Assembly (NCBI GenBank): GCA_964016885.1
Contig: OZ024740.1
Span: forward strand, 69,440,001-69,504,000
Direction of reading: 5' to 3'
DNA: 64,000 bases
From: Eledone cirrhosa
Taxonomy: Eukaryota
The notes beneath the pieces are model-generated. The model did not search any database. It had not been told where the DNA came from and was given only the letters and a program-made list of their open reading frames with translations. The translations under genes and the position numbers were made by a program. This document shows, in pieces, positions 973 through 64,000 of this stretch; position 1 is the stretch's first letter; each line of letters opens with the position of its first letter.

Positions 973-1072
<100 letters not shown>

Positions 1073-1362
1073 CAAATAACGAAACGAAATTAAATTTCGT
1101 TTCGTTTGTAACTCACTTTTGTATGACTGACGCTTAAACAATTAAGTTAAAAATGTACATCTACATATGCATACTGAAATACTAGTCTGTATATGAATAC
1201 ACACACGTATACATATGTAGGTGTACCAAGTCTTTCACTGGTCGCTTTACAGTGAGCGGCCCAGCTATTCTGTACGTAAACACACAGACAAACCGGTTTT
1301 TAGAGTCATACTGGTTTTCGGGGGGAACACCTTCCCTCCATTCTCCAGAAAGCCAGACAAGG

Positions 1363-1407
1363 AATATTGGACTAGTTTCGTTGTTGTTACAACTCATCAG
1401 CAATATT
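1363..1407 (-). ncRNA. Minimal type I hammerhead ribozyme (further copies 1831-1875 and 2299-2343)
   Basis: Minus strand reads AAUAUUG-CUGAUGA-GUUGU aaca ACAAC-GAAA-CUAG-UC-CAAUAUU: canonical core, 7-bp stem I, 5-bp stem II, palindromic ACUAGU stem III, GUC cleavage triplet. Confidence 0.92.
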
Positions 1408-2877
1408 TACCTATCTACCGGCCTTTCTGGAGAATTGTAAAAGCACATATCGTTATATGCTTTTTCTATGAAAATTAGTAGTGGGCAGACTAATTTGCAT
1501 AGAGTGTGAGTACGCACCGGTTCAGCGGAGACGATAAAAACAAATAACGAAACGAAATTAAATTTCGTTTCGTTTGTAACTCACTTTTGTATGACTGACG
1601 CTTAAACAATTAAGTTAAAAATGTACATCTACATATGCATACTGAAATACTAGTGTGTATATGAATACACACACGTATACATATGTAGGTGTACCAAGTC
1701 TTTCACTGGTCGCTTTACAGTGAGCGGCCCAGCTATTCTGTATGTAAACACACAGACAAACCGGTTTTTAGAGTCATACTGGTTTTCGGGGGGAACACCT
1801 TCCCTCCATTCTCCAGAAAGCCAGACAAGGAATATTGGACTAGTTTCGTTGTTGTTACAACTCATCAGCAATATTTACCTATCTACCGGCCTTTCTGGAG
1901 AATTGTAAAAGCACATATCGTTATATGCTTTTTCTATGAAAATTAGTAGTGGGCAGACTAATTTGCATAGAGTGTGAGTACGCACCGGTTCAGCGGAGAC
2001 GATAAAAACAAATAACGAAACGAAATTAAATTTCGTTTCGTTTGTAACTCACTTTTGTATGACTGACGCTTAAACAATTAAGTTAAAAATGTACATCTAC
2101 ATATGCATACTGAAATACTAGTGTGTATATGAATACACACACGTATACATATGTAGGTGTACAAAGTCTTTCACTGGTCGCTTTACAGTGAGCGGCCCAG
2201 CTATTCTGTATGTAAACACACAGACAAACCGGTTTTTAGAGTCATACTGGTTTTCGGGGGGAACACCTTCCCTCCATTCTCCAGCAAGCCAGACAAGGAA
2301 TATTGGACTAGTTTCGTTGTTGTTACAACTCATCAGCAATATTTACCTATCTACCGGCCTTTCTGGAGAATTGTAAAAGCACATATCGTTATATGTTGTA
2401 ACAACAACGAAACTATCGTTATATGTTGTAACAACAACGAAACTAGTCCAATATTCCTTGTCTGGCTTTCTGGAGAATGGAGGGAAGGTGTTCCCCCGAA
2501 AACCAGTATGACTTTAAAAACCGGTTTGTCTGTGTGTTTACATACAGAATAGCTGGGCCCCTCACTGTAAAGCGACCAGTGAAAGACTTGGTACACCTAC
2601 ATATGTATACGTGTGTGTATTCATATACACACTAGTATTTCAGTATGCATATGTAGATGTACATTTTTAACTTAATTGTTTAAGCGTCAGTCATACAAAA
2701 GTGAGTTACAAACGAAACGAAATTTAATTTCGTTTCATTATTTGTTTTTATCGTCTCCGCTGAACCGGTGCGTACTCACACTCTATGCAAATTAGTCTGC
2801 CCACTACTAATTTTCATAGAAAAAGCATATAACGATATGTGCTTTTACAGTTCTCCAGAAAGGCCGGTAGATAGGTA

Positions 2878-2922
2878 AATATTGCTGATGAGTTGTAACA
2901 ACAACGAAACTAGTGCAATATT
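2878..2922 (+). ncRNA. Hammerhead copy in inverted arm with GUG triplet, probably inactive (also 3346-3390)
   Basis: aatattg ctgatga gttgt aaca acaac gaaa ctagtg caatatt; C17 is changed to G. Confidence 0.8.
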
Positions 2923-3816
2923 CCTTGTCTGGCTTTCTGGAGAATGGAGGGAAGGTGTTCCCCCCGAAAACCAGTATGACTCTAAAAACCGGTTTGTCTG
3001 TGTGTTTACATACAGAATAGCTGGGCCGTTCACTGTAAAGCGACCAGTGAAAGACTTGGTACACCTACATATGTATACGTGTGTGTATTCATATACACAC
3101 TAGTATTTCAGTATGCATATGTAGATGTACATTTTTAACTTAATTGTTTAAGCGTCAGTCATACAAAAGTGAGTTACAAACGAAACGAAATTTAATTTCG
3201 TTTCGTTATTTGTTTTTATCGTCTCCGCTGAACCGGTGCGTACTCACACTCTATGCAAATTAGTCTACCCACTACTAATTTTCATAGAAAAAGCATATAA
3301 AGATATGTGCTTTTACAATTCTCCAGAAAGGCCGGTAGATAGGTAAATATTGCTGATGAGTTGTAACAACAACGAAACTAGTGCAATATTCCTTGTCTGG
3401 CTTTCTGGAGAATGGAGGGAAGGTGTTCCCCCCGAAAACCAGTATGACTCTAAAAACCGGTTTGTCTGTGTGTTTACATACAGAATAGCTGGGCCGCTCA
3501 CTGTAAAGCGACCAGTGAAAGACTTGGTACACCTACATATGTATACGTGTGTGTATTCATATACACACTAGTATTTCAGTATGCATATGTAGATGTACAT
3601 TTTTAACTTAATTGTTTAAGCGTCAGTCATACAAAAGTGAGTTACAAACGAAACGAAATTTAATTTCGTTTCGTTATTTGTTTTTATCGTCTCCGCTGAA
3701 CCGGTGCGTACTCACACTCTATGCAAATTAGTCTGCCCACTACTAATTTTCATAGAAAAAGCATATAACGATATGTGCTTTTACAATTCTCCAGAAAGGC
3801 CGGTAGATAGGTAAAT

Positions 3817-4060
3817 CTGTTTGCTCTGATCAGAGCAAACAGCACGGACACTCTATCTCAAAATTATTTTTGAAAAGCATTTAGAAATGCGCAACCGGTA
3901 AAAACTTAAAAACTTAAAACCACAACTGAATACTAACCCATACAATCACTAATACTCTTTTATTCCTAATTAAACCATTTTTCAACTGTGAACAATTTGT
4001 CAGCATTTTCTATTCCGTTTACCAATATATAATAACTTGTGTGTTACACCTCTATTCTTT

Positions 4061-4066
<6 letters not shown>
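3817..4066. mobile_element. Short dispersed element beginning with a perfect 26-bp palindrome; related copy inverted at 56126-56318
   Basis: ctgtttgctctgatcagagcaaacag at 3817-3842. 3830-4025 matches the reverse complement of 56126-56318. Ends at (TA)n. Confidence 0.7.
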
Positions 4067-4119
<53 letters not shown>

Positions 4120-22508: not shown

Positions 22509-23226
<718 letters not shown>

Positions 23227-30154: not shown

Positions 30155-33100
30155 CTACAGGCTTATGTAAAGAGAAGGCCCATTCACACGGGCCATTCTC
30201 GCCACTTTCACCCACCTTTCATAAAAACGACTGGGGTGGAGCACCTCTCTCTCCATCCTGATCCTTCTTCTGAAATGATATCGGAAGAAACGGACCAGTT
30301 GTTGGCCAGAGAGAAAGGTGCCTGACCTCAGTCCTTTCAGACGCGTCCACCACACAACTTCTTTCACCTTGGCTATTACGCACAGAAACACCGCCTCTCC
30401 TTCATCTTTGAAGGGGGGAGGCGGATTGATCATTACAATAGACTCGGTGGTCAACCGGATCGGTCCCACCCTTGACAGCAGTTGTTCGACATAGCCCCAC
30501 AGATCGGCTACGCCCGAGCAGTGTACCAATGCGTGTGCAACGGTTTCCTCGTCGCACACGCATCTGGGACAGATCTTTTTGGCGGGGTCCCTACCCGGGC
30601 GCCCGTGTCTGTAGAGCTTTTCTCGAACGGGTAGAGCCCCTCGGTAGCACTGCCAGGCCAGGGACATCTGGAAGTTATCCATAGGTCCCGGGCTGAATGT
30701 CCTACCGAACATGCTGGCCAGTTCGTCTTCCTCCATGTCTAGGGCTTCTCCGAGGGCGTCGTCGCACCTGCTGCGTACCAGCCCTCTATAGAATGTTGCG
30801 GTGGAGTCTCCACTGATAACCGGATCCGCCTACCAAAGGGCGGTGAGCGCCTGGGCACACTCGGTGTGCCAGGCGCCCAGTTTTCTTGGTCTTTGCTTGA
30901 CCCAGGATTGCAGCTCGGTAAGTGAGACGAGTCTGGGAAAGGTTCGTCTCACAAACGAGGCCCACACCGGTTGACCGGTGAGGAATACGTGGAGGTGCCG
31001 TATCCTTAATGCGTGTTTACGCATCATTAGCCACGGCATCCCCATCCCTCCTTTCGAAGGGTGTTGACAGCAGATGGATCACCTCACCAAGGGAGCCCGC
31101 CTCTTCCAAAGGAATTGGAAGAGCTCGCGCCGCTTCTTGGCGAGGGTTTCCCTTGGGCAAGGCACTACGGTCAGGCGGTAGTAGATGACGGACGCTATAT
31201 AGGTGTTCGCCACCTACGCCCGACCTTTCAGGGATAGTTTGCAACTGGCCCACTTCTGGGTCAGTGTAAACACACTGTCCGTAACCTCCGCGCAGTTCTT
31301 CTCCACCTGGAGGTCTGGTCCGAACCAGACCCCGAGCAACTTCACCGGGCCCTCCGTCCAGCGTCCGACGACGCCATCGGAGGGCATCGGTCTGCCCCTC
31401 TACGTGCCGAGTTGCAAACCCATCGACTTGTCCCGGTTCAGCTTATCCCCTGTGAACCTTTCGTACTCCTCCGGTAAAGTGCCGACCGCCCCGATTTCGG
31501 AAGCCGTCGACACCATTACTGTCACGTCATCGGCGTAGGCCGACACCGCTTTCCGCAATCCCGGTTCCAAAGGGATGCCCTGCAACAACTCCAACTTCCG
31601 CAGTAGTGGCTCGAGAGTCAACACATACAGAAGGGAGGAGAGAGGGCACCCTTGTCGGATGGACCGCGCGATTTTGAACGGCTCCGAGAGGTAGCCGTTC
31701 ACCTTGACCCTAGAGCAGATGCGGTTGATGTGCATAGCAGTGATCCAGCCCCTGAAAACGGGTCCGAAGCCTGCCGCCGCTAGCACCGCATCCAGGTACC
31801 ATGGTCGACCCTATCGAACGCCTTAGATTGATCCAAGTTGATCAGAGCCCCACCAAATCCGGGTTCGTTCCCAACCTTCTCTATGATGTATCGCATGAGG
31901 GGGAGGTTCTCATGGATGGACCTGGATGGGATAGCACATGTCTGCGCATCTCCCACCAGGTTGCCCACGACAAGCGCCAACCTCTTTGCTAGCACCTTGG
32001 CCAAAATCTGTAACTCTGTATTTAGCAGAGTTATGTGCCTGAAGTTACTTATTCGTCCCCCTTGTTCTCGTCCTTCCTCACTAGCGTGACTACGCCCTTG
32101 GTCACAGTACAGGGAATTCTCCCGTTCTGTTGCCAGTTGCAGTAGACCGCCTCGAGGAGATCGGGGAACACGTCCGGCATAGCTAGATATAATTCGTATG
32201 GAAGACCATCAAGACCCGGGGATTTGCGTTTGCCGCACTGGCTCAGCACGTCCTCTATCTTAGCGGCAGAAATCGGCTCCTCGCAGGACTTCGCCTCCCT
32301 GTCCGAGAGACGCGGCAGGCCGTCGAGGTATGGACCGAAGTCCACATCCCCAACCGGCTCCCCGTCCCTTCCGAACAGTCGGGCAAAGGGCCTTTGAAAG
32401 GCCACACACATCTGCTTAGGCTCAAGAATCGCCCGTCCATCCTGGTCTCGCAAAGACCGGATGGTGGATTTAGTTCCACTGTTGGCCTCTGTCACGCGGG
32501 CCCAGCTAACAGCTTTGGTCCCCTCGTTCCCTAGAGCCCGTATTTTACTTCGGACAACGCAGCCTTCGTGCTTCGCGTCGAAAAACTGGCTCAAAGCCGT
32601 TCTTGACGCTAGCACTCTGGCCACGTCGCCGCTTCTAATTGCCTCTTCTACTCTATCTATTAGCTCCCTTTCCTTCCTATTCCTATCTGCAGCTAGAACC
32701 TTACTAAATTCTATCGAGACTACGCTAATCTCTCTCTTTAGAGATACCCACCACCTGCTGTTGACGATCGCTCCTGTCAACCGTTCCTTAACTAACGGAC
32801 TAATGCGATCCTGTAAGCTCTACTTGCCGGCAAGGACAAGTTGAGCTTCCAGTAACCGGGGCCCTGTCTATGCGTTCTATCAAGGTTGACCATGCAGGTC
32901 ACCAACTTGTGGTCTAAAATAGCCAACCATGAGCATTTCTGGACAACTTAAAAAGTCCCTGTCCTTATTTCTAACTAAAAACCTATCTAGGTACGACCTA
33001 GATGACCCGCTGCGATTTGAACAAGACCAGGTTGGCACTGTCGGAAAATCTAGTCGAAATCTATCGGCCAGGTCAAATCGGCCGAGTAACCCCTTGAGGC

Positions 33101-33590
33101 TGTTGCACCCCTCTCTATCGGGACATGCCCCTGCATAGTCCCAACGTGCATCCAGGATACCATTCCAGTCCCCCACTAAAAGCAGGGAACGGGACGTCCC
33201 TAGAAAAAATTCCAGACGCTGGACAAAGTCGGGCCGCTCTGTCCCAAAAGGGGCATATGCGGCTACCAGCCTAAAGGCTCCACCTTCACCACTGCCAAGG
33301 TCCAGCACCACCAGTCAACCCCCTGGGTCCAAGTGAACTATCTGTGTGGCAAGACCCAGATGTTTTTGCAGCAGAAGGACAACCCCACCCCCACCTCCGG
33401 GCTGACAGAGAGATGCGTGCATCTCAAAGTCGTCAAAGGTGGGGGCTAGCTGTCGCATGCTGCTGATCCGGGCCTTGCAGATAACCATCACATTTATAGA
33501 TCGTGACCTGAGGTCATTTAGAAGCATTGCTTGCTTCCAAGATGGGCCCAGGCCACGCGCATTTGGACACCCTACTCTTAGCACAGCCAT
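30155..33590 (-). pseudogene. LINE ORF2 (APE, reverse transcriptase, C-terminal zinc motif), multiple frameshifts
   Basis: Fragments: CPNARGL, LVAAYAP, VGDWN, SYLDRFL, KSPGLDGLPYE, LDQSKAFDRVDH, IRQGCPLS, AYADD, CPRCVCDEETVAHALVHC, spread over seven or more ORF pieces. Confidence 0.92.
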
Positions 33591-33769
33591 GTTGGTGGTA
33601 AAGAGGAAAGGCACTTACCTCGTCCCGGGAAGCGGGTCGCTCAATTTCCATGCTGGTTGGGGATGGGTTGTTGGGTGGTGGTTTGTGGAAGTGAAGGGGC
33701 ATCAGTGTGTTGTGTGGTTGGGGTGTTTGTGGTTGAGTGGGTGTCTGGGTGGGGGGGGGGTGATATTTT

Positions 33770-35422
33770 TTAGGAGGACGCAGTTGATTGGTTTACGCAG
33801 GGGGGGCCCACGTCCTCCGTGAAATTTATTTTCAGTGTTTTATAAAAGTTCATTGGAACTTTAATCATTTTTAAATGAGGTAGTCCCACAGCAGTTATAA
33901 AGTTAGGCCCTTCAGTTTTGACCGAAGGGTTTGATGAAATTGTTTTCAGTAGTTCTTTGTTGTCTGTGTTCATGTATGTATATTGTAAAGTCTTTTTTTG
34001 TGTAGCAGTTAGTGTTGTGTGACGGGGAGGGGTGGTTTGTATATAGTTTGTGTTCTCTTGGGGAGGGTTAAAGTTAACAAGTGTGTCTGTGGTGCGCCTC
34101 CTCTTCTTTCTTTTTACTGTTCGGAAGGGATCTTTTTCGCCTTGCGACGAAAGGGATTCGTCTTCCTTGTTGGGTGGGAGGGGTATGTTTTCTGGTAGTG
34201 TTTGCGGTGTGTGTGTTTTTGTATTTGTTTTGGGTGAGGAGGGGTTGGGTGGGACAGTATTCTGTGTTGTTTTTTCACGTGTTTGTTGTTGTTGTTGTGC
34301 TGGTGGTGGTGTTGTTGTTGTTGTGGTTGTTTTTGTTGTTGTTGTTGGGGTGGTGTTGGTGTTGGTTGCAGTGTTTTTTTTCTGTGTGAGCTGGGGACAG
34401 GCAGCCCTCAGGTGACCTCTATTGCCACAGAGGTAACAGGAGGGACGCCTACCCTCCACAATAATGTTGAGGTGGGTACGGTCATCCAGCATGACGCGCT
34501 CAGGGATTTGGGCGATACGTTCTGGTCTTATTTGTGTCAGAACTTCGATACTCGTTCCACTGAACGCGTCGCCGGATGCCTTCCCTATTGAAATGAGGTT
34601 GTCCTCGTCTAAATTGAGGAATCCGTTTAGTAACCACCAGTAGTAAATGTTTGGGGTGATGGTGGTTATCAATATTCTCTGGGGTTTTTTACCCATGTAG
34701 GTGGGGAATAAGGTGTAGTGTGTGGAACGAATTGGCGACACAGAGTATTTTTTCGCCGCCAATTCGTCTTTCATCAATATGGATAAACTCCCATAGAGTT
34801 TATCCTTTTGTATGAAAGTGATGTCTTTCATCGCTTCTTTCAGTACTAACTGAATTTCAGCTTGAGATGGTTGTGCTGTTTTTTTTGTTTTATTTAAAAT
34901 TGTACGGAATACGACAGTTCGTATTTCCGTCTGTTTTTTTAGTTCTGGAGGTGAATTTATAGAAAACGAACCGTTTTCGCCAAAAGATACATATTTTTTG
35001 GCTTTTTCCAGCATTTCTTTGGCTTTTGAAATATCTTCAAGCACATAAGTGACTGATAATTTAGCCGTTTGTGCAAAAGATATTTTGTTTTCGTTGTTGG
35101 TGTTTGTATTGTTTTGTTTCTCGTCGTTTGAGTTGTTTTCATCTTTGTTGTTGTTGTCTTTCTCGTTTGGTGTGTGGATACTTGTGACGTTTGTGTTGTT
35201 GTTGTTTTTGTTGTCTTTATTGTTGCTGTTGTTGTCGTTGTTGTTGTTTTCAGTTTCTTGTATAGTTGTGGCTACATCAAGTTGTCGGTCAACAGGTGAA
35301 GAAAATTCTTCCTCTGGCTGACCTCTGCCTTTGGCATCTGCTGCTGTGACAGTGGCAGGGGGAAGCTGTGAGTATGACTTCCCTTTTCTTCCTTTGACTG
35401 TTGGTGAAGATGCTTCAGCCAT
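33770..35422 (-). CDS. LINE ORF1 gag-like protein with CCHC zinc knuckle
   Basis: 550-aa open frame containing CYLCGNRGHLRAAC (CX2CX4HX4C), directly upstream of ORF2. Confidence 0.85.
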   Translation of the reverse strand: MAEASSPTVKGRKGKSYSQLPPATVTAADAKGRGQPEEEFSSPVDRQLDVATTIQETENNNNDNNSNNKDNKNNNNTNVTSIHTPNEKDNNNKDENNSNDEKQNNTNTNNENKISFAQTAKLSVTYVLEDISKAKEMLEKAKKYVSFGENGSFSINSPPELKKQTEIRTVVFRTILNKTKKTAQPSQAEIQLVLKEAMKDITFIQKDKLYGSLSILMKDELAAKKYSVSPIRSTHYTLFPTYMGKKPQRILITTITPNIYYWWLLNGFLNLDEDNLISIGKASGDAFSGTSIEVLTQIRPERIAQIPERVMLDDRTHLNIIVEGRRPSCYLCGNRGHLRAACPQLTQKKNTATNTNTTPTTTTKTTTTTTTPPPAQQQQQTREKTTQNTVPPNPSSPKTNTKTHTPQTLPENIPLPPNKEDESLSSQGEKDPFRTVKRKKRRRTTDTLVNFNPPQENTNYIQTTPPRHTTLTATQKKTLQYTYMNTDNKELLKTISSNPSVKTEGPNFITAVGLPHLKMIKVPMNFYKTLKINFTEDVGPPCVNQSTASS

Positions 35423-35646
35423 TTTTATAAAAATAGGATTTTTCGAAATTTTTCGAAAGATAAAATGTTTACCACACTATTTCGCCTAAAGGCGTAGAAT
35501 ATTTTGAGAGACTAACCAGATCAAAATTTGACCTGGCAGTCCCCTTACAACATGGTACGAAAATGAAAGTTTACAGTTCACAATTTCCAGATAAATTTAA
35601 ACGAAACTTACCGAGCGAGCTCAGCATATGTGTCCATCGTAAATAT

Positions 35647-35734: not shown

Positions 35735-38700
35735 ACCAAAATAAACTGTCCAATCCGTATGAAGAACTCAATGTAATCCAAATATAGAAGATATCATGAA
35801 AAGAGAAAATGCATTCAAAATTTAACGATAAAAATCATAGGAAAACAGTCAAGATAAATTAATAAAAACAATGAAATAAAAACAAAGAACAGGTTCCTTA
35901 TATTTAAAAAAATCATCATTTTACGATCGTTTCTGGGATATATGTGTGTATGTTAGTATGTATATCATATAAAGAGCTATGTAAAAAAATATTGCAAATT
36001 ATCAGAGGAGATATACATACCTTCACTTATAAATGCAATCTTCAGAAATGATGAAGTATGTTTATTGAAAGAAAGTATTAATACAAAAAGTCTGTTTGGG
36101 AACAGGTTTTGAATTGAGCAATAGAAAAGTTAGTGGTCAAGTTGATAGAATAACCGTAGTAGAAACTTTATGCTAGGAGTGGAGGAATGTAAATTAATGC
36201 TCTGAATGAAAAGAATGGGGAAGAGAAAGGTAGGGGTTAAAATGAGGTCAAGTTAATGAGATAGTGAAGGATTCCCCAAAACAAAATTGATGTTATTAAA
36301 GAATGTTGTTAAAAGTATAGGGAAAAGAATTGTATGTGGGATGAGAGTGTTAGTGAGAAATACTACTCCTGTTTAAATGTTAAGGAACCTAGATACATAA
36401 AAGTAAATTAAATTAATTGATAGGTATACTTACAGAGTTAAAATTATATCAATTCTTATGGAAGTGATAAATAAAGAAGTAAAAGAAATTAAAAAAATAT
36501 ATATATATATAGAAAGACTGAAATAGTTAAAATTGTATAACTATCTAAACAACCGTAATATTAAAGATATTAATTATATTTACTAATCCTAGGTATTGAA
36601 TGTGATAGATAGGGGATACGGTTAAAAGAAGTAGTGAGGTAAAGGATAACTTAAGGTAAAGTGAGCTGCAAGAGGGAAATAAAATTATGAAATACTTTGT
36701 AGTAAATATTTAATTATAGGTAAACTAAATTATTAAAAAATTATACTAATTTGTAGAATATAAGAGTGTGGTATATATTAATTAAGTGTATAGTATTTGA
36801 AGTTTTTTCTAATTCTATGATTCCATGATATAATTAATTCCTGTCGTTTATTTAATAGGATATCATTAGATTTCATGATTACAAATAGTTCTTGGGAGCA
36901 TAACCTACACTCATATCTACTATTTTGATAAGGAGTGGCCCTTTTGGGCACGCTCCAGGTCAGGTTATAATCAATATCTTTCTTTCTATAATTATTAATT
37001 GCTTCAGCCAACGAGGTTGTATTAGCTAATGCGGCATTTTTTAAACTATGTTTGTGGGTATTAAATCTTACTTTAAATTGGTAAGACGTAGCTCCTATAT
37101 AGGATTGAGTGGAGTCCTTAGTCCTAACTACACATGTATAGACTATATTATTAATAAGACAATTTCCCTTTAATGGGCTATTTCTTATGATTCTACAGCC
37201 ATTCGTAAATATTGTGTCAGGAGAGTTAATTGTGTTATCTATAGTGGTATTAGTGTTACTATTTTCATTAATGTATGGTTTAGAATGGGTTGTAATTAGA
37301 TTAGTATGGTTAGACAGGTTGTTGGTGGGTTATAGTTAAGGGGAGGTGGAGTTAGTAGAACACTGTTTGTTTTGGAGATTATTAGTCAAAGTTGGTGTGG
37401 AGTTTGAAGAAGAAGATGGTTTGTTTAGATTTACTTTAGTATTATTATGGTTAGTTTGATGTGTTGGTGGTATATTTATGATTTTTTACACTTATATGTG
37501 TTGTACGCACTTATATTCTGTTGTATATTCTTGGTAGTGGAGTAGGAAAATTTGACAGTAGATCTGTTTAAAATTTGATGATATTTATGGTTTGGTGGGA
37601 AATTTTTCTCTAGGATAGCAAATAATTTTTTAGGGATATTGTCTTTAATCTGTAGATTAAATGGAGCATTATACCAAGTGACCCGTCTATTACGGTTTCG
37701 ACATTGTTTCTTATATTTATATGATGTATGTGGTTTATTTAGATTAAGTGATGTTTTAGTCTGATTACTAGAAATGTTGTTAGTTATGTTGTTGACGTAT
37801 GCAAGAGTTTTATGGTGAATAATTTTCTGAAAGTCATTATCTTTTATGTGAGAAGAGGTAGAGAAATTAAGTTTTGTGTTGGTGTTTTTAGGTGTAGTAT
37901 GAGTGGCGTTTAGGTGTGGGTTTTTCATTTGGTGTTTGTTGGTAATATTAGGTTGTATGTTTGAAATATTATTAGTGCAAGGTATATAGACTAATTTGTT
38001 CTTATGGCCGCATCAAGCTAAAGCTTCATTATAAAAGGGCGCGTTTTTATCGAATACATTATGATTTGATGAAAGGTTAGAGATTCTATGCTAGGTTTTT
38101 AAGGGTGGATTTAGCGCGATTAGATTGTGAGTGTATGTAATGCAAGTTATGTTTAGGTTTATGGTAAGGTTGGTAGATACCTGTAGATAGGTCCATAGTT
38201 ATATCTAGGAAATTGACTATTTTACTGGTGTTTTCAAATGTAATAGTGAGATTATAATAGTCTTTGAGGAAAGTTCTAATAAGTTTTTTATTTATTTCAA
38301 TTTCAATTTATTTCAATTTCCGAGAGGCTAAGATTAGTGGATAGAAGAAGACAGTCATCACGATATAAACCACCTTTAAGGTGGGGAAAAGATGAATTAA
38401 TATTAAATAGGAGAAAAAGGCCCACAACATCGGTAATTTGGCCAGAATCACTAGAGCCCATAGTTATGTCGAAGAGATTACTATATGTATTTCTGGTCCA
38501 ATACTCCTTCTGAAATTAAAGTAGTGTTTGTCTAGCGTGCGTGATAATATTGATGTCATCCATAGTTAAGTCTGATCTATTTTTGGCAAATATCAAGGCT
38601 TTGTTCAGGAGTATGGGTGATATAGAGGAATAATATGCATCTATATAGAATTGTAGAAATGAAGCAGAGGATTTATTTTCAATATTAGTAAACCAAGTAA

Positions 38701-38904
38701 TTACTTGGGATGTGTTTTCCCAGAGTGGTAAATTAACGTATTTTCTTAATTGTGAGATAATTTTATCCAGAATTTGTTTGCTTATGATGCCAATGTCTGA
38801 TTTGGAAGGGCATATAAGTCTTATAGAAAGATTAAAGTTGAAATTAGATTTGTGATCCTTCAGGTTAAAGTGTGGTTTTTACAGTGCCAGGGGTTCAACT
38901 TTCT

Positions 38905-47904: not shown

Positions 47905-49689
47905 AATTCCATATATGGTAAAAGTGATTGTCACAAGGATTGGTCAAAAGTTTGTTGTTGAGACATAATAATTCTATCATGGCAATTTATGGAGGGAAGG
48001 GGTAGCTGAACCTGCCATTAGGAGACAGAGGGAGAGGGGGTGGAGGATACCCAGTCATGCGTTGATAGTGCCGACTACAGCTGGGCATGAGGTCGAAAAA
48101 GATACTAGGGAGGGGGAGGGGGAGGAAGTCGAAACAATAAGTAAAACAATATGGAGTAAATATATAGAAAAATACCGAGAGTGTTAAAAAGCAATTCAAA
48201 TTTTAAAAAAAAATAAACAATTTCTGGTTACTACGACTTAAGGACAGCTATCAAGTATCTCAGAGGTACTGCTAGGCGAGAGAAAGGTTTACTAGGTGGG
48301 GCGGAATTATAATGAGACCATTTTAAGAGGTATAAGTAATAAACCGAGTATATATTACGGTGACGGGTCAACAAGTGAGGGGCCAAAATACTAAAGAAAC
48401 TACCACAAAATAATAAATAAAGGTTTCTACCCCAGGCACAAGGCCAGCAACCACCCAAGTGCAAAAAAATAAACTAATACGAAATAATAATTCAGAATCT
48501 CGAAAAATAATACTAATACTATCTCTAAGGGTGCCGCCCTGATACAAACATTTCTAGTGCAAACTACATAAATGCTCGTACGAAGTATATGTAAAATTTG
48601 ATACGGAAAATTAATTCAGAATCCCCCCCCCCCCCCCCCCATAAAAAAAATTTATACTGATATACGAGAAATTAAAGCAAAGATACCACTAAGAAATATA
48701 GAAAGCACGGAAAAGGAGCAGCGATCGGATAAGAAGGCAAGTATCCGGGGTCTAACACATCTGCTATAAAAAGCGGAGTCGGCCAAATCATAGAATAGGG
48801 GAAGGGTGGGGTGCTGAGGCTACAAAGGACCGAGGGGCTGCCTCGGGTGGTCGAGAAAATGAAAAGGATGACGACAAAGAAAGAGGACTGGGGTGGAAGG
48901 ACTAGGGAGGGATGGGGGGAAGAAGGAAATATAGAGGTAGCGATAAAAAGATATAAAAGAAGATCTTACGTCTACCTTTGCAAGCGGGGGGTACCCACTA
49001 CAAAATCGGCAAGTAGGGTGTTATAGCCCTAGTCTACCCCTCCGGGTCATTATGGGGTTTGAGGGCGAGGTAATTCCTGCGCAATCTGTGTTTACATACA
49101 GTAACCACTTCATCTTTCTTGTTTAGGAGTTGGTCCGTCGAAAACAGCATTTGTAAAGTTTCCTCCGAGCATAAATTGCACGGACGGCATCCTCACGTGT
49201 AAGAGTTGGCTCTGCACAGTAAGCTCCAAGTGAGATGATAGGTAATGTTGTTATCCTTGAGGTCCCATATGTGGCCCTAAAGTGTAGTGGCGTGACGCCG
49301 AGCCGGGTTTCGGAAGGTATGTCTGTGTTGGTATAGCCGGGTCTTGAAGTCACATGCGGTTAATCCTATATAAGCTTTGTTGGAGGTGTCCGTCCTCACG
49401 TTGCACTGGTAGATAACATTACGATCTCTGCATCTGTTGTCGAGGGGGCAAATGGATCCATCAGGACAGTTGCACCTCCTGGTCGGCTCTCCACTGCTAT
49501 TTAGGTTATTTCTTCCATAGGGGTTGAGTTTTTTGTTGTTAGAGGAGACGATGTTTTGTGCGAAGTTTGGTGTGGTGCTGTAAGAGAGTTTGATGGTATT
49601 TTTGTTAATTATGTTGTGGTAGCGGTGTTGTAGTGGGAAGTGTTTTTCAATGAGCCTAAAGAAGATTTTCCCGATAGGAGTTGTCACCT

Positions 49690-50206
49690 CGTCTCCTCTA
49701 ACAACAAAAAACTCAACCCCTATGGAAGAAATAACCTAAATAGCAGTGGAGAGCCGACCAGGAGGTGCAACTGTCCTGATGGATCCATTTGCCCCCTCGA
49801 CAACAGATGCAGAGATCGTAATGTTATCTACCAGTGCAACGTGAGGACGGACACCTCCAACAAAGCTTATATAGGATTAACCGCATGTGACTTCAAGACC
49901 CGGCTATACCAACACAGACATACCTTCCGAAACCCGGCCCGGCGTCACGCCACTACACTTTCGGGCCACATATGGGACATCAAGGATAACAACATTACCT
50001 ATCATCTCACTTGGACCTTACTGTCCAGAGCCAACTCTTACACGGGAGGACGCCATCCGTGCAATTTATGCTCAGAGGAAACTTTACAAATGCTGTTTTC
50101 GACGGACCAACTCCTAAACAAGAAAGATGAAGTGGTTACTGCATGTAAACACAGATTGCGCAGGACTTACCTCGCCCTCAAACCCCATAATGACCCGGAG
50201 GGGTAG
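49690..50206 (+). pseudogene. PLE GIY-YIG endonuclease domain, 5'-truncated; mirror copy at about 49030-49687 on minus strand
   Basis: CNCPDGSICPLDNRC..VIYQC..AYIGLT..FKTRLYQH..CNLC.EE..LLNKKDE..CKH. Confidence 0.88.
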
Positions 50207-51413
50207 ACGAGGGCTATAACACCCCACTTGCCGATTTTGTAGTGGGTAACCCCCGCTTGCAATGGTAGACGTAAGAACTTCTTTTATAACTTTTTATCGC
50301 TTCCTCTATATTTCCTTCTTCCCCCATCCCTCCCTAGTCCTTCCACCCCAGTCCTCTTTCTTTGTCGTCGTCCTTTTCATTTTCTCGCCCACCTGAGGCA
50401 GCCCCTCGGCCCTTTGTACCCTCAGTACACCCACCCCCTTCCCCTATTCTCTGATAGATTTGGCCGACTCCGCTTTTTATAGCAGATGTATTAGACCCCG
50501 GATACTTGCCTTCTTATCCGATCGCTGCCCCTTTTCCGTGCTTTCTATATTTCTTAGTGGTATCTTTGCTTTAATTTCTCGTATATCAGTATTAATTTTT
50601 TTTTCTGTATCAAATTTTACATATACTTCGTACGAGCATTTATGTAGTATGCACTAGAAATGTTTGTATCGTGGCGGCACCCTTAGAGATAGTATTAGTA
50701 TTATTTTTCGAGATTCTGAATTATTATTTCGTATTAGTTTATTTTTTTGCACTGGGTGGTTGCTGGCCTTGTGCCTGGGGTAGAAACCTTTATTTATTAT
50801 TTCGTGGTAGTTTCTTTAGTATTTTGGCCCCTCACTTGTTGACCCGTCACCGTAATATATACTCGGTTTATTACTTATACCTCTTAAAAGGGTCTCATTA
50901 TAATTCCGCCCCCTCTAGTAAACCTTTCTCTCGCCTAGCAGTACCAGTGAGAGACGTGATAGCTGTCCTTAGGTCGTAGTAACCAGAAATTGTTTTTTTT
51001 TTTTACTTTTAATTGCTTTTTAACACTCTCGGTATTTTTCTATATATTTACCCCATATTGTTTTACTTATTGTTTCGACTTCCCCCTCCCCCTCCCTAGT
51101 ATCTTTTTTGACCTCATGCCCAGCTGTAGTCGGCACTATCAACGCATGACTGGGTCTCCTCCACCCCCTCTCCCTCTTTCTCCTACTGGCAGGTTCAGCT
51201 ACCCCTTCCCTCCACAAATTGCCATGATAAAATTATTATGTCTCAACAACAAACTTTTGACCAATCCTTGTGACAATCACTTTTACCATATATAGGAATT
51301 ACCCCGTAAGAAGCTCGGCTATTCAAATACCAGGATAAAAATGTTCATTTAGTCCAGAATTAGCCGTCGAAACGGCTTGAGCTCAGCCGTCGGGGTCCTA
51401 CTCGTTCCTATAT

Positions 51414-51669: not shown

Positions 51670-51674
<5 letters not shown>

Positions 51675-52672
51675 ATACTTTGGGAGGGTCATGTTGCCAA
51701 TAAGAAACACACGCACCAGTTACTTTCACTTCAATTTATTATATATTTATAAATTTATAAATTTACAAATGTACAAACTTATAAATTTCTGGTTGGTTGG
51801 TTGGTTCCACAACCAGATAGTTGTTTATATATAGTCATAGTCCTTTCGTCACACACTCTGTGACCTCTTCAGTGACTGGGGATTCCTTTCTTTGTTTCTG
51901 TGCCTTTCCTTTCTTCTATCCTACGCCATTTTGTTTCTGTGTGCGTGTTGTGTGCTCAGTTTGCGCATGCGCCACATCCGGGTGTCTGTGTGTGTTTGTG
52001 TTCATTTATCTATTTGTTTATTTATTTATTTATTTATTTATTGTTGGTTGGTTGTTTGTTCTATGTGTGTGTGTGTTTTCATTTTGTCCTGTGTGTGTTT
52101 TCATTTTGTCCTTAATTGTAAGTTGTGATGTTGCTGTTCCACTCATATTTTCTATTTAATTTTTGTTGTAATTCTTTTATGCTTACTGCCTCTGTAATTT
52201 GCCTAAACACACACACACATAGAACAAACAACCAACCAAGAATAAATAAATAAATAAATAAACAAATAGATAAATGAACACAAACACACACAGACACCCG
52301 GATGTGGCGCATGCGCAAACTGAGCACACAACACACACACAGAAACAAAATGGCGTAGGATAGAAGAAAGGAAAGGCACAGAAACAAAGAAAGGAATCCC
52401 CAGTCACTGAAGAGGTCACAGAGTATGTGACGAAAGGACTATGACTATATATAAACAACTATCTGGTTGTGGAACCAACCAACCAACCAGAAATGTATAA
52501 GTTTGTAGATTTGTAAATTTATAAATTTATAAATATATAATAAATTGAAGTGAAAGCAACTGGTGCGTGTGTTTCTTATTGGCAACATGACCCTCCCAAA
52601 GTATAACAATATCGGTTTCAACACACGATTTCAGATAAAGAATCTTGCTAAACAAATTCAGAAACGAAATGT
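51670..52672. mobile_element. Fold-back PLE 3' end: about 410-bp inverted arms around a GIY-YIG C-terminal stub
   Basis: 51670-52079 mirrors 52206-52612. The spacer encodes RQITEAVSIKELQQKLNRKYEW on the minus strand, matching the R.I.EA..I.....LN end of PLE endonucleases. Confidence 0.85.
52402..52446 (+). ncRNA. Minimal hammerhead ribozyme (mirror copy 51833-51877 on minus strand)
   Basis: AGUCA-CUGAAGA-gGUCACA gagua UGUGAC-GAAA-GGAC-UA-UGACU. Confidence 0.82.
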
Positions 52673-53227: not shown

Positions 53228-55760
53228 TTAGTTGAACCATGGTTCCGTGAAGGAGGCAAATGGTGTACTGTGGTTTGGTATGATTTCCCTTTTTAGAGAG
53301 TTAATGTGCAGGGGGAAGCAATTCTTGCTGGGTGATATTTTAGGTAGGATGTGATGGAGGTAACTCTTGTAAATGTTTGATGGTTTGTTGCAGTTTTGGA
53401 TTGGTCCGATTTTTAAGGCATTGAGTAGTGTTTGAAATTTATTAATGAAATGTGTTACCTTATTGGTGCGTTGGGTGAAAGTAGCATTGTCTATGAATTT
53501 GTAAATGGAGAAAATTTTAAAGTTTGGATGTTGGTTGAGAGCACAATTGGCGATATGTTCAGTAAATGCAATCTTTCTGTATTCCTGTATTTTAATTTGT
53601 GATTTATGGACGGTCATACGTTGACCGAGGCTGTTTTTTGTCTGTCCTATGTAGTGCTCTTGACAAGCTGAGCAGGTCAAAACATAGATAAGGTTTTCAG
53701 ATGCACATGTAAAGTTGTGTTTAACTGTGAAACGTTGTCTTTGTTTAAAATGGAATGTTGAACCTTCTATTAGATTTATGCATATGCCACAGTTGGGCCT
53801 TCCGCATTTTGTTACTGTAGGCTTTATTGTGAAGGTTTGTTGGATTTTGGTTTGTGTGCGGATGTTTTTTATGGATTTGGGTTGTCTTTTGCTCTTTATG
53901 ATGTTGTGTGTTTGGAGGATATTGTTCATTCTTGGGTCTCTTTTTAGTAAAGGAATGTTCTGGATGATGGTATTGAATGCCTCATTGTTGAGGGGGTTGT
54001 GTGTGGAGATGTATGGTAGAGTTTTTGTTGCGGTTCACTCCTGGGTTTGGAGTGTCTGAGTTCCTGGATGTCTAGTTTTAGGGCACGTTGGAATCCATTG
54101 GTGATTAGGGATGGTGGGTAGTTTCTGCTGATAAGTGTGTTTTTTAAATTCTTCTAGTTGTGTGTAGCATGTGTATTTATCTGAAACTATTGTGCAGATC
54201 CTTCTGGCTAGGTTATAAAGAATTGCCATTTTGGTGTGTCTAGGGTGGCACGAGTTGAATGGAAGGTATTGTTTGTAGTATATGTCTGTTTCTATTGTGT
54301 TTCTTGTTTTCTTGATGAGGATGTCGAGGAAAGGGAGTTGTTCATGGCTGTAATCCATTGTGAATTGTAAGTTAGTATTGAGTCCATTTAGAAGGGTTTT
54401 AAACTCAAACAGTCTATCTATACTTTCATGCCAGAGGATGAAGGAGTCGTCCAGATATCTCTTCCAGTTTTTTTCTGTGTAGGTAGAAGTGGTTACCGTA
54501 TTTGTCTAGAACTTTTCGGTAGAGAATGGTTTCCAAATATCCCATGACAAGGTTGGCGTATGAGGGGGCTACTTTCGTGCCCATGGCAGTCCCAGATTTC
54601 TGTCTGTAGTATTTGGCATTGAATTCGAAGAAATTGTTGAAAAGATGAATTTGAGTCCTTCCAACACAAATTCTTTAGGGATGCGTTGTGGAAGTTCACT
54701 AGGGAAATGTTCCATCCAGAATTGCATTGCCTCTCTACCTAGGTTATGTGGGATATTGGAATATAAATTGATGACATCAAAGGTTACTAGTAGTGTATGT
54801 TCTTATTGAGTGTTGTTGGGAGGTGGTTGAGCATGTCAAGGTCGTCCCTTATGAAGCATTTTATATGTTTTAGGAAAGGTTTAAGCAGAATATCTAGGAA
54901 GTTGCTAAGGCGATGGGTTTCACATGTGGTGCCTGCTATTATGGGTCTTAATTTAAGGTCATCAGGAGGGGCTATATTGATGTAAACGTCTGTGGCTTGC
55001 TTGCAGGCCCTGCCTATTACTTCGCTTTTGTGTGTCTTGGGGATACCGTAGAAGAAGCTGGTTCTGCTTTTGAAATTGGTGATGTAGTTATATTCATTGT
55101 CTGTAAGGCCTTCTTTGTAAAGGGTCGTTAGGGATTTTAGGTTTCTCATTAATTTCTCTTGTGTGTAGTGTTGGGCCTTTTCATAATATGTTTGGTTTTC
55201 TAGAGTTGAGAGTACTAGAGTTTTGTAATAATCTGTCTCCATAAGGACTACTGCACTCTCTTTATCTGCCTCTTTGATTGTTAGGGTTTTGTCGTTTTTT
55301 AGACTGTTAAGACCATTCCAATCGTTTTTGCTTAGGTTTGGTTTTTGTTTATGTCTGTGTAGGTGGTGGTATGAGTAATTAGTAATGTGTTCGTAGAATT
55401 GATCGAGGAATTTATTCTTGCCTTTTGGTGGGTATAGTTGCTTCTATTTCTGGCTATTGAGTCATCCTCATTGTATTTGTTGTATAGTTGTTCGCTGAGT
55501 CTTAGTTTTCTACAGAATTCTGCAATATCTTCCTTCATTTCGGAGCAGTTTGGTTGTTGGGAAGTTGGTGTAAATTTTAGACCTTTGGAGAGTATGTTGA
55601 TTTGGTCTGTTGTTAATTCTTTGGAGATTAAATTGAAAATGTTTATTGCATTTTGTGTCTCCTGTGTGTTTTGTGTTATCTTGTAATTCTGTGTCTGTGT
55701 GCTGTGTCTAAAAAATGATTACGGAAGTTGTGATGGCTGTTGAAGTTTGGATGTCTCTTA
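53228..55760 (-). mobile_element. Penelope-like element, Neptune-type (RT, Cys-rich linker, GIY-YIG), frameshifted
   Basis: [38 protein letters not shown] (about 54447-54467), LPFLDI, CGRPNCGIC, TCASENLIYVLTCSACQEHYIGQT. Confidence 0.9.
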
Positions 55761-57225: not shown

Positions 57226-57268
<43 letters not shown>

Positions 57269-57273
<5 letters not shown>

Positions 57274-60200
57274 CAAATAACGAAACGAAATTAAATTGTA
57301 TGTAAACACACAGACAAACCGGTTTTTAGAGTCATACTGGTTTTCGAGGAAACACCTTTCCTCTATTCTCCAGAAAGCCAGACAGGAATATTGGACTAGT
57401 TTCGATGTTGTTACATCTCATCAGCAATATTTACCTATTCCGGCCTCTCTAGAGAATCGTAAAAGCACATATCGTTATATGCTTTTTCTATGAAAATTAG
57501 TAGTGGGCAGACTAATTTGCATAGAGCGTGAGTACGTACCGGTTCAGCGGAGACGATAAAAACAAATAACGAAACGAAATTAAATTTCGCTTCGTTTGTA
57601 ACTCACTTTTGTATGACTGACGCTTAAACAATTAAGATAAAAATGTACATCCACATATGTATACTGAAATATTAGTATGCATATGAATACACACACGTGT
57701 ACATATGTAGATGTACCGAGTTTTTCACTGGACACTTTACTGTGAGTGTTCAGCTATTCTGTATGTAAACACACAGACAAACCGGTTTTTAGAGTCATAC
57801 TGGTTTTCGAGGAAACACCTTTCCTCTATTCTCCAGAAAGCCAGACATGAATATTGGACTAGTTTCGATGTTGTTACATCTCATCAGCAATATTTACCTA
57901 TTCCGGCCTCTCTAGAGAATCGTAAAAGCACATATCGTTATATGCTTTTTCTATGAAAATTAGTAGTGGGCAGACTAATTTGCATAGAGCGTGAGTACGT
58001 ACCGGTTCAGCGGAGACGATACAAACAAATAACGAAACGAAATTAAATTTCGCTTCATTTGTAACTCACTTTTGTATGACTGACGCTTAAACAATTAAGT
58101 GAAAAATGTACATCCACATATGTATACTGAAATATTAGTATGCATATGAATACACACACGTGTACATATGTAGATGTACCGAGTTTTTCACTGGACACTT
58201 TACTGTGAGTGTTCAGCTATTCTGTATGTAAACACACAGACAAACCGGTTTTTAGAGTCATACTGGTTTTCGAGGAAACACCTTTCCTCTATTCTCCAGA
58301 AAGCCAGACAGGAACATTGGACTAGTTTCGATGTTGTTACATCTCATCAGCAATATTTACCTATTCCGGCCTCTCTAGAGAATCGTAAAAGCACATATCG
58401 TTATATGCTTTTTCTATGAAAATTAGTAGTGGGCAGACTAATTTGCATAGAGCGTGAGTACGTACCGGTTCAGCGGAGACGATAAAAACAAGTAACGAAA
58501 CGAAATTAAATTTCGCTTCGTTTGTAACTCACTTTTGTATGACTGACGCTTAAACAATTAAGTTAAAAATGTACATCCACATATGTATACTGAAATATTA
58601 GTATGCATATGAATACACACACGTGTACATATGTAGATGTACCGAGTTTTTCACTGGACACTTTACTGTGATTGTTCAGCTATTCTGTATGTAAACACAC
58701 AGACAAACCGGTTTTTAGAGTCATACTGGTTTTCGAGGAAACACCTTTCCTCTATTCTCCAGAAAGCCAGACAGGAATATTGGACTAGTTTCGATGATGT
58801 TACATCTCATTAGCAATATTTACCTATTCCGGCCTCTCTAGAGAATCGTAAAAGCACATATCGTTATATGCTTTTTCTATGAAAATTAGTAGTGGACAGA
58901 CTAATTTGCATAGAGCGTGAGTACGTACCGGTTCAGCGGAGACGATAAAAACAAATAACGAAACGAAATTAAATTTCGCTTCGTTTGTAATTCACTTTTG
59001 TATGACTGACGCTTAAACAATTAAGTTAAAAATGTACATTCACATATGTATACTGAAATATTAGTATGCATATGAATACACACACGTGTACATATGTAGA
59101 TGTACCGAGTTTTTCACTGGACACTTTACTGTGAGTGTTCAGCTATTCTGTATGTAAACACACAGACAAACCGGTTTTTAGAGTCATACTGGTTTTCGAG
59201 GAAACACCTTTCCTCTATTCTCCAGAAAGCCAGACAGGAATATTGGACTAGTTTCGATGTTGTTACATCTCATCAGCAATATTTACCTATTCCGGCCTCT
59301 CTAGAGAATCGTAAAAGCACATATCGTTATATGCTTTTTCTATGAAAATTAGTAGTGGGCAGACTAATTTGCATAGAGCGTGAGTACGTACCGGTTCAGC
59401 GGAGACGATAAAAACAAATAACGAAACGAAATTGAATTTCGCTTCGTTTGTAACTCACTTTTGTATGACTGACGCTTAAACAATTAAGTTAAAAATGTAC
59501 ATCCACATATGTATACTGAAATATTAGTATGCATATGAATACACACACGTGTACATATGTAGATGTACCGAGTTTTTCACTGGACACTTTACTGTGAGCG
59601 TTCAGCTATTCTGTATGTAAACACACAGACAAACCGGTTTTTAGAGTCATACTGGTTTTCGAGGAAACACCTTTCCTCTATTCTCCAGAAAGCCAGACAG
59701 GAATATTGGACTAGTTTCGATGTTGTTACATCTCATCAGCAATATTTACCTATTCCGGCGTCTCTAGAGAATCGTAAAAGCACATATCGTTATATGCTTT
59801 TTCTATGAAAATTAGTAGTGGGCAGACTAATTTGCATAGAGCGTGAGTACGTACCGGTTCAGCGGAGACGATAAAAACAAATAACGAAACGAAATTAAAT
59901 TTCGCTTCGTTTGTAACTCACTTTTGTATGACTGACGCTTAAACAATTAAGTTAAAAATGTACATCCACATATGTATACTGAAATATTAGTATGCATATG
60001 AATACACACACGTGTACATATGTAGATGTACCGAGTTTTTCACTGGACACTTTACTGTGAGTGTTCAGCTATTCTGTATGTAAACACACAGACAAACCGG
60101 TTTTTAGAGTCATACTGGTTTTCGAGGAAACACCTTTCCTCTATTCTCCAGAAAGCCAGACAGGAATATTGGACTAGTTTCGATGTTGTTACATCTCATC

Positions 60201-63200: not shown

Positions 63201-64000
63201 TACATCCACATATGTATACTGAAATATTAGTATGCATATGAATACACACACGTGTACATATGTAGATGTACCGAGTTTTTCACTGGACACTTTACTGTGA
63301 GTGTTCAGCTATTCTGTATGTAAACACACAGACAAACCGGTTTTTAGAGTCATACTGGTTTTCGAGGAAACACCTTTCCTCTATTCTCCAGAAAGCCAGA
63401 CAGGTATATTGGACTAGTTTCGATGTTGTTACATCTCATCAGCAATATTTACCTATTCCGGCCTCTCTAGAGAATCGTAAAAGCACATATCGTTATATGC
63501 TTTTTCTATGAAAATTAGTAGTGGACAGACTAATTTGCATAGAGCGTGAGTACGTACCGGTTCAGCGGAGACGATAAAAACAAATAACGTAACGAAATTA
63601 AATTTCGCTTCGTTTGTAACTCACTTTTGTATGACTGACGCTTAAACAATTAAGTTAAAAATGTACATCCACATATGTATACTGAAATATTAGTATGCAT
63701 ATGAATACACACACGTGTACATATGTAGATGTACCGAGTTTTTCACTGGACACTTTACTGTGAGTGTTCAGCTATTCTGTATGTAAACACACAGACAAAC
63801 CGGTTTTTAGAGTCATACTGGTTTTCGAGGAAACACCTTACCTCTATTCTCCAGAAAGCCAGACAGGAATATTGGACTAGTTTCGATGTTGTTACATCTC
63901 ATCAGCAATATTTACCTATTCCGGCCTCTCTAGAGATTCGTAAAAGCACATATCGTTATATGCTTTTTCTATGAAAATTAGTAGTGGGCAGACTAATTTG
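57269..64000 (-). repeat. 463-bp tandem array with 15 hammerhead copies visible; runs off the window end; subfamily of the 468-bp repeat
   Basis: Period 463 (one unit 462). Clearly homologous to 1068-3816 with fixed differences. Confidence 0.95.
57387..57431 (-). ncRNA. Minimal type I hammerhead ribozyme; copies about every 463 bp up to 63868-63912
   Basis: AAUAUUG-CUGAUGA-GAUGU aaca ACAUC-GAAA-CUAG-UC-CAAUAUU. Confidence 0.92.

Follow-up and report, generated by a model that had tools for sequence, protein, structure and literature searches.

Hammerhead repeat arrays in Eledone cirrhosa: a retrozyme family with Penelope-like insertion anatomy and a probable footprint of RNA editing

The window, the whole stretch of 64,000 nucleotides analysed here, contains two arrays of one repeat: array 1, at 1066-3816, has units of 468 bp, and array 2, from position 57267 on, has units of 463 bp. 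The units of the two arrays are about 92% identical. A hammerhead-like motif at 1363-1407 differs between them in ways that keep its helices paired. The question raised by this locus is whether these differences record selection on an RNA through which the repeat has spread, or changes made in that RNA before it was copied back into DNA.

The hammerhead motif and its family

The motif at 1363-1407 is a type I hammerhead of the minus strand, identified by its sequence, by Rfam HH9 and by covariation, and it belongs to a non-LTR retrozyme family; its cleavage is predicted. Read from 1407 to 1363, the minus strand contains AAUAUUG, CUGAUGA, GUUGU/ACAAC, GAAA, CUAG, UC and CAAUAUU in this order. 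Stem I pairs 1401-1407 with 1363-1369 and stem II pairs 1389-1393 with 1380-1384, while CUGAUGA lies at 1394-1400, GAAA at 1376-1379 and the CUAG cap at 1372-1375. All parts of a type I core (CUGANGA, GAAA and NUH with stems I-III) are present. Cleavage would occur after GUC, between 1370 and 1369, and the cleavage triplets within the family are GUC, GUU and GUA. Stem I is open, and stem III is a single A-U pair under the palindromic CUAG cap. The axolotl motif HHR_Amex1 shares the one-pair stem III and palindromic tetraloop, a form described as cleaving as a dimer (PMC7229834); among Xenopus dimers, 8 of 9 are reported to show no cleavage (10.64898/2026.07.22.740005). At the gathering threshold, Rfam gave no match in the whole window. 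Hammerhead_HH9 (RF02275) matched the minus strand at 1347-1418 over its full length with 41 bits (E 7.7e-9), below its gathering score of 52, and stem III is much shorter here than in that model.

A 12-bp helix on the minus strand (1341-1434) encloses the ribozyme by pairing 1341-1352 with 1423-1434. The unit between two predicted cleavage sites (1370-1837, minus strand, 468 nt) folds into a branched, highly paired structure of -163.7 kcal/mol, with a z-score of -11.2 relative to shuffles. The plus strand also folds far better than its shuffles (z -9.85). Folding energy is therefore uninformative as a strand test, and the strand is assigned by the catalytic core. Units of the divergent subfamilies C and D fold into a branched layout similar to that of A/B, with an identity of about 70% for C.

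The repeat has no LTR, is dispersed and multicopy on many contigs, and occurs in tandem runs of two or more units, every one of which holds a type I hammerhead. It is non-coding, and its sole frame is a chance ORF of 131 codons that spans a head-to-head junction. Exact-pattern searches, which miss mutated cores and returned 0 in reversed controls, count at least 35,763 cores in the 3.0-Gb genome, 9,290 of A/B type and 26,473 of the divergent C/D type. C/D units are 420-502 nt long and about 70% alike to A/B in alignable parts; the A/B subfamilies form a nested ladder. We conclude that the repeat is almost certainly a newly found family of an established class. Animal non-LTR retrozymes are likewise described as tandem non-coding units that carry a type I hammerhead, have a GC content under 50%, are highly self-paired and co-occur with Penelope-like elements (PMC7229834, 10.64898/2026.07.22.740005). 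At 420-502 nt, the present units slightly exceed the range of 170-400 nt given in 2020 (PMC7229834).

Covariation and selection on the fold

Between the arrays, stem II changes from GUUGU/ACAAC (468-bp units) to GAUGU/ACAUC (463-bp units) with core and stem I identical, exactly as a sequence-only reading of the window had described. Its two changes in the enclosing helix are also present. They lie at 1429, where C409U gives G-U, and at 1425, where A413G gives U-G at a recurrent A>G site, and both are A-C on the plus strand. From these differences the reading deduced a minus-strand hammerhead fold, selection on that fold and propagation of the repeat through RNA. The fold and its strand are supported by the core and by covariation across 21 representatives.

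The same reading proposed an alignment of genome-wide copies as a check. Across the genome the swap holds, and the second pair of stem II is mismatched in 6 of 9,290 A/B-type cores (3 U-U, 3 A-A). On a tree of 105 insertions, however, column 461, where the swap lies, changes once. The stem II swap is one evolutionary event and more than a local accident, and such linkage is expected in clonal subfamilies. Insertion L114, with U-U in both cores, takes a tree position between the A-U and U-A groups.

Covariation is stronger in the divergent subfamilies than in the swap. Among the 21 representatives, both partners have changed in 7 of the 16 hammerhead pairs of stems I and II. Pairing is kept in 94% of cells, against 80.6% for shuffles and 34-50% for slid controls. 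With the representatives treated as unrelated, the paired cells and the covariation score are above 500 of 500 shuffles; two pair-count measures on the same 21 sequences are not above shuffles (143/500 and 454/500). This count covers stems I and II and omits the enclosing helix, where A/B and C/D are aligned out of register.

Selection on the fold is real but modest. We mapped substitutions by parsimony on FastTree trees and defined the helices without G-U and on both strands. Lineage changes end paired in 24 of 40 cases and single-copy changes in 64 of 214. With A>G excluded, the ratio is 15/30 to 45/194 (p 0.004), yet the substitution rate is not lower in paired than in unpaired columns (p 0.76).

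Insertion anatomy and the Penelope connection

Propagation through RNA is supported mainly by the anatomy of the insertions. This anatomy is Penelope-like and gives better support than the stem II swap. We collected 110 merged regions with 68 head-to-head pairs, one duplicated locus being counted twice. Fifty pairs join one long and one short fixed 3' end, 1 joins two short ends, none joins two long ends, and 17 have an atypical end. In a replication with 39 further loci (a 40th was dropped for overlap with an earlier one), 22 of 26 pairs are long plus short and 4 have an atypical end. Where both ends lie at defined sites, 72 of 73 insertions combine one long with one short end (50/51, then 22/22); many loci were picked by likeness to the window units, which favours one long end and not its short partner. 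The fixed ends lie at unit positions 301-304 and 224-236 in A/B, 328 and 270 in C, and 273 and 217 in D. In the unit described above, the long end corresponds to 1534 (position 304) and the short end to 1602-1614 (positions 224-236), both on the minus strand, and these would be the first and second starts of reverse transcription. TA repeats abut 157 of 172 fixed ends in the 110-region set. The 5' ends are scattered across the unit without favouring the cleavage site, and arms read through that site.

Both arrays of the window can be read in these terms. The left arm of array 1 (1066-2395, minus strand, 2.8 units) has its long fixed end, at unit position 304, against (TA)n at 1007-1068. A head-to-head junction at 2384-2445, a feature of neither strand, contains a 30-bp duplication and leads into the inverted right arm (2425-3816, plus strand, 3.0 units). 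This arm has GUG in place of GUC in both full cores and an atypical end at unit position 433. Joined to it are the 3'-terminal 246 nt of the Neptune-like Penelope family N4 (3817-4070, plus strand), which end in (TA)n and are 98.8% and 99.2% identical to copies L250 and L285. A deletion between two adjacent insertions is the more likely origin of this arrangement, because it fits the long-plus-short rule; a template-switch chimera would result in two long ends and is disfavoured. The main arm of array 2 (57267-64000, minus strand, 15.7 units of 463 bp) runs about 545 bp beyond the window and includes a 6-unit higher-order duplication. Its long end at 57267 stands against (TA)n after a short deletion, and its inverted arm of 2.6 units, with a short end, lies just outside the window.

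An inverted 5'-truncated copy, a tail at one end and a microsatellite target are all present, and these are described as marks of Penelope-like insertion with its (TA)n bias (PMC8557442). For the Penelope-like reaction, AT-rich cuts and two internal sites of initiation are reported (PMC11167929). As far as these two sources describe Neptune-type elements, the likeness extends to random 5' truncation. The present family differs from them in having no protein frame, a tail of about 56-75 nt instead of 30-40, arms that are many-unit concatemers, and a full-size rather than minimal hammerhead. We regard the head-to-head arms with fixed ends as genomic evidence, read from sequence, for a Penelope-type reaction; each end would be primed at a different internal site, and the family may offer a trace of that reaction. 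Tandem arrays and higher-order repeats would also suit a DNA satellite that spreads by recombination and carries its ribozyme as a relic. We give this idea almost no credence, as it is contradicted by the strand-polarised fixed 3' ends, the long-plus-short rule, the dispersal over many chromosomes and a strand-asymmetric substitution spectrum.

Candidate enzymes exist in the genome. Neptune-like frames with reverse transcriptase and GIY-YIG domains span 636-1096 aa, the clade label resting on the CX4CxxC motif described in PMC8557442. Families N2 and N4 of this type also have two 3' ends in (TA)n. A pLTR origin of non-LTR retrozymes has been argued by Li et al. 2026 (10.64898/2026.07.22.740005). 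Xenopus families have a homologous pLTR element, whereas a survey here of 80 endonuclease loci (30 + 50), taken from more than 10,000 candidates, turned up no autonomous element that shares the repeat sequence. The Neptune-like family present in the window itself was rejected as partner: 30 copies, with protein identity to the query of at most 92%, contain neither a hammerhead nor shared sequence. An endonuclease frame beside a subfamily D array at L108 is no pLTR but a Penelope-like frame into which the array had inserted, with a 9-bp duplication; the array (L108:1409-3261) is apparently carried in an inverted copy of that element.

Several smaller observations concern the same surroundings. 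The long 3' end of N2, a hammerhead-bearing Neptune-like family (L273/L284), shares 15 nt with the antisense of window 1403-1417, a stretch just upstream of the ribozyme; the match was seen by eye and may be chance. At L022, L053, L114, L135 and L138, members of different subfamilies have accumulated with Penelope fragments in shared (TA)n tracts. At L209, the insertion lies outside a TA tract and has an apparent 6-bp target duplication, with flanks read by eye.

A>G changes and the template of the arrays

The wobble argument of the sequence-only reading has to be judged from the substitution spectrum. We scored changes from the parsimony parent, which also sets their polarity, and separated those carried by all copies within an insertion from those in a single copy; base pairs were derived from the same sequences as tested. 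In the discovery set of 66 A/B insertions with a full unit, paired all-copy changes comprise 18 A>G, 0 U>C, 1 C>U and 3 G>A, with no unpaired A>G; the single-copy counts at paired sites are 21, 20, 39 and 35. The independent set of 39 further insertions gives 7, 1, 0 and 0 for all-copy and 8, 11, 18 and 25 for single-copy changes. Combined, the 50 all-copy changes include 25 A>G, 1 U>C, 1 C>U and 3 G>A at paired sites and a single unpaired A>G, and the 542 single-copy changes include 29, 31, 57 and 60 at paired sites. The all-copy A>G excess is significant by Fisher test against both U>C (p 9e-6) and C>U (p 6e-9). A>G makes up 25 of 35 paired all-copy changes and 29 of 336 paired single-copy changes. 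By site, all-copy A>G occurs 25 times at 96 paired adenosines and once at 52 unpaired ones.

Counted as template-level events, 33 A>G changes fall on 15 sites, 8 of them at A347 in a UAG context, and 8 of the 33 are covered only once. Their 5' neighbours are U in 16 cases, A in 14, C in 2 and G in 1, and ADAR is reported to prefer U>A>C>G at this position (PMC11019741). A preference for 3' G (5 of 15 distinct sites) owes most of its support to a single hotspot. The paired A347 (window 1491, minus strand) is the strongest hotspot, with A>G in 8 of 105 insertions and 8 parsimony steps. Further hotspots on this strand are A270 (1568) and A5 (1833). The A413 column has 5 steps and is among six recurrent A>G sites, and array 2 carries G at two of these, including the A413G change named above. 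In C/D, the excess is weak in 24 older insertions (paired A>G 9, U>C 4, C>U 4, G>A 3). Editase domains (PF02137) occur at 4 places in the genome.

We consider these genomic A>G changes likely to be RNA edits that were copied back into DNA. The sequences show what an ADAR substrate should show, namely RNA-strand A>G in duplex that is depleted after G, weakly so in C/D. Recurring sites and one clustered triple agree with editing as described in PMC11019741. The changes differ from it in being read in genomic DNA alone and in every unit of an insertion, and in being selective rather than hyper-edited. In the literature within reach, we found no report of edits fixed in retrozyme or Penelope copies. 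No sequencing run on record is labelled as RNA, and contigs from four runs of unrecorded kind carry no weight in the argument. As a mere lead, contigs of one of these runs from another sample (X3) have RNA-strand A>G at A347 in 168 of 212 depth at window 1491, where run X1 has about 1%, and at the paired A152 in 40 of 133 at window 1686, where X1 has 0.

Symmetric mutation filtered by selection on the minus-strand fold, without editing, would yield G-U wobbles as the sequence-only reading proposed. The compensatory changes in stems I and II, the excess of non-A>G changes that end paired, and the distribution of all-copy U>C (7 unpaired, 1 paired, p 0.005) are consistent with such a filter. As stated, the argument from wobbles to selection fails, because a C>U change also makes a wobble and would pass such selection as easily as A>G. 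C>U is twice as common as A>G in single copies, yet stem changes at the template level number 25 A>G and 1 C>U. Tolerance alone also cannot yield the contrast between paired and unpaired adenosines, and we judge selection without editing a very unlikely source of the bias. Viroid-like RNA-to-RNA replication, raised as a possibility for the heterogeneity of mussel retrozymes (PMC7229834), or polymerase wobble errors would make both A>G and U>C, of which selection would keep A>G in stems. The 7 unpaired all-copy U>C changes would fit this origin. It predicts at least as many unpaired as paired A>G, against the 1 and 25 observed, and neither the neighbour preference nor the hotspots that we see, and it is highly improbable. 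Editing is favoured because selection alone admits C>U, polymerase error ignores pairing, and DNA mutation within the same arrays is symmetric. From an A>G excess confined to paired, all-copy changes, the G-U bias would come mainly from editing, with weaker selection that removes pair-breaking changes; we hold this to be probable. A bias of G-U over A-C, often read as strand-specific selection, can thus stem from editing, which is a caution for covariation work.

The distribution of edits over copies bears on the template. In multi-copy insertions, hotspot A>G is present in every copy for 17 of 20 events, often on both arms, and in only some copies for 3. A haplotype with three clustered A>G, at first thought unique to one insertion, turned out to mark a young clone whose 69 units are spread over 7 loci. 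This clone has arms of up to 17.6 + 8.0 and 6.9 + 12.9 units; their fixed ends are intact, and they are essentially identical within and between these loci. Arrays of 20-25 units with zero divergence occur on different chromosomes, and this clone appears to be moving now. From such patterns we infer a monomer bottleneck followed by regrowth of long arrays in one step, most simply by rolling-circle copying. The circle is best stated conditionally, because all-copy changes may come from unsampled donors and because duplications of 5-6 units in older arrays indicate that DNA-level expansion also occurs. The GUG common to two units of the array 1 right arm and the 3 partly shared hotspot events also weigh against this picture.

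Penelope-type retrotransposition could also start from long uncleaved linear multimers, with donor arrays regrown by unequal exchange, so that editing is possible and no circle is needed. In vitro, unprocessed RNA is reported as the dominant substrate of one Penelope enzyme (PMC11167929); the arms are indifferent to the cleavage site, and older arrays have their higher-order duplications. Linear multimers are nevertheless unlikely, because unit-by-unit editing would put new edits in single units, where A>G shows no excess over U>C, while 17 of 20 hotspot events are in every copy; the zero-divergence arrays on different chromosomes also argue against them. At L199:1265-6306 (G000:C744), one arm passes from young-clone sequence into a B-type unit without loss of register, and the switch falls somewhere between the cleavage triplet and unit position 72. 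A junction at the cleavage site would fit this single case, which lies on a small contig.

The reading that we prefer, with a probability of roughly two in three, is that a ribozyme-made, ADAR-edited circle is copied repeatedly into (TA)n by a Penelope-like reverse transcriptase. Minus-strand RNA would cleave itself into a folded monomer of 420-500 nt, which would likely circularise and have its paired adenosines edited, likely by ADAR. An enzyme would nick both strands of a TA tract, and each nicked strand would prime synthesis at its own internal RNA site, the two sites being separated by about 70 nt. A Penelope-like reverse transcriptase would likely roll round one circle, copying it into the (TA)n DNA and reading inosine as G in every round, until the two cDNAs meet head to head. 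On balance we favour seeing ADAR as the main mutator of the stems and an array as the many-fold print of one edited circle, written into the germline through a borrowed Penelope enzyme.

Copying from circles and the supply of a Penelope-like enzyme were both proposed by Cervera and de la Pena 2020 (PMC7229834), and the present family adds genomic evidence for both. Head-to-head arms with paired fixed 3' ends and the A>G footprint are not among the features described in the accessible parts of PMC7229834 and 10.64898/2026.07.22.740005. What the family newly contributes is evidence in the genome for a Penelope-type reaction and, with less certainty though still probably, for ADAR-edited circular templates. 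If the edits are real, genomic copies are a record of the RNA circle so far only proposed as the retrozyme template. The family also points to specific positions for direct tests, namely two start sites and several hotspots of editing.

Other elements share the window with the two arrays. Two unrelated short inverted elements with hammerhead-like cores, at 51672-52640 and 22560-23110, also lie in (TA)n, and the former apparently has two 3' ends about 60 nt apart. Broken Penelope-like elements occur at 53228-55718 and 36778-38878, both on the minus strand, and at 48400-51000; one of the three is Neptune-like, and two are of another type that we take to be Nematis-like, one of these as an inverted pair. 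A broken LINE at 30155-35476 (minus strand) has, judged from translations, a gag-like frame and pieces of an endonuclease and a reverse transcriptase.
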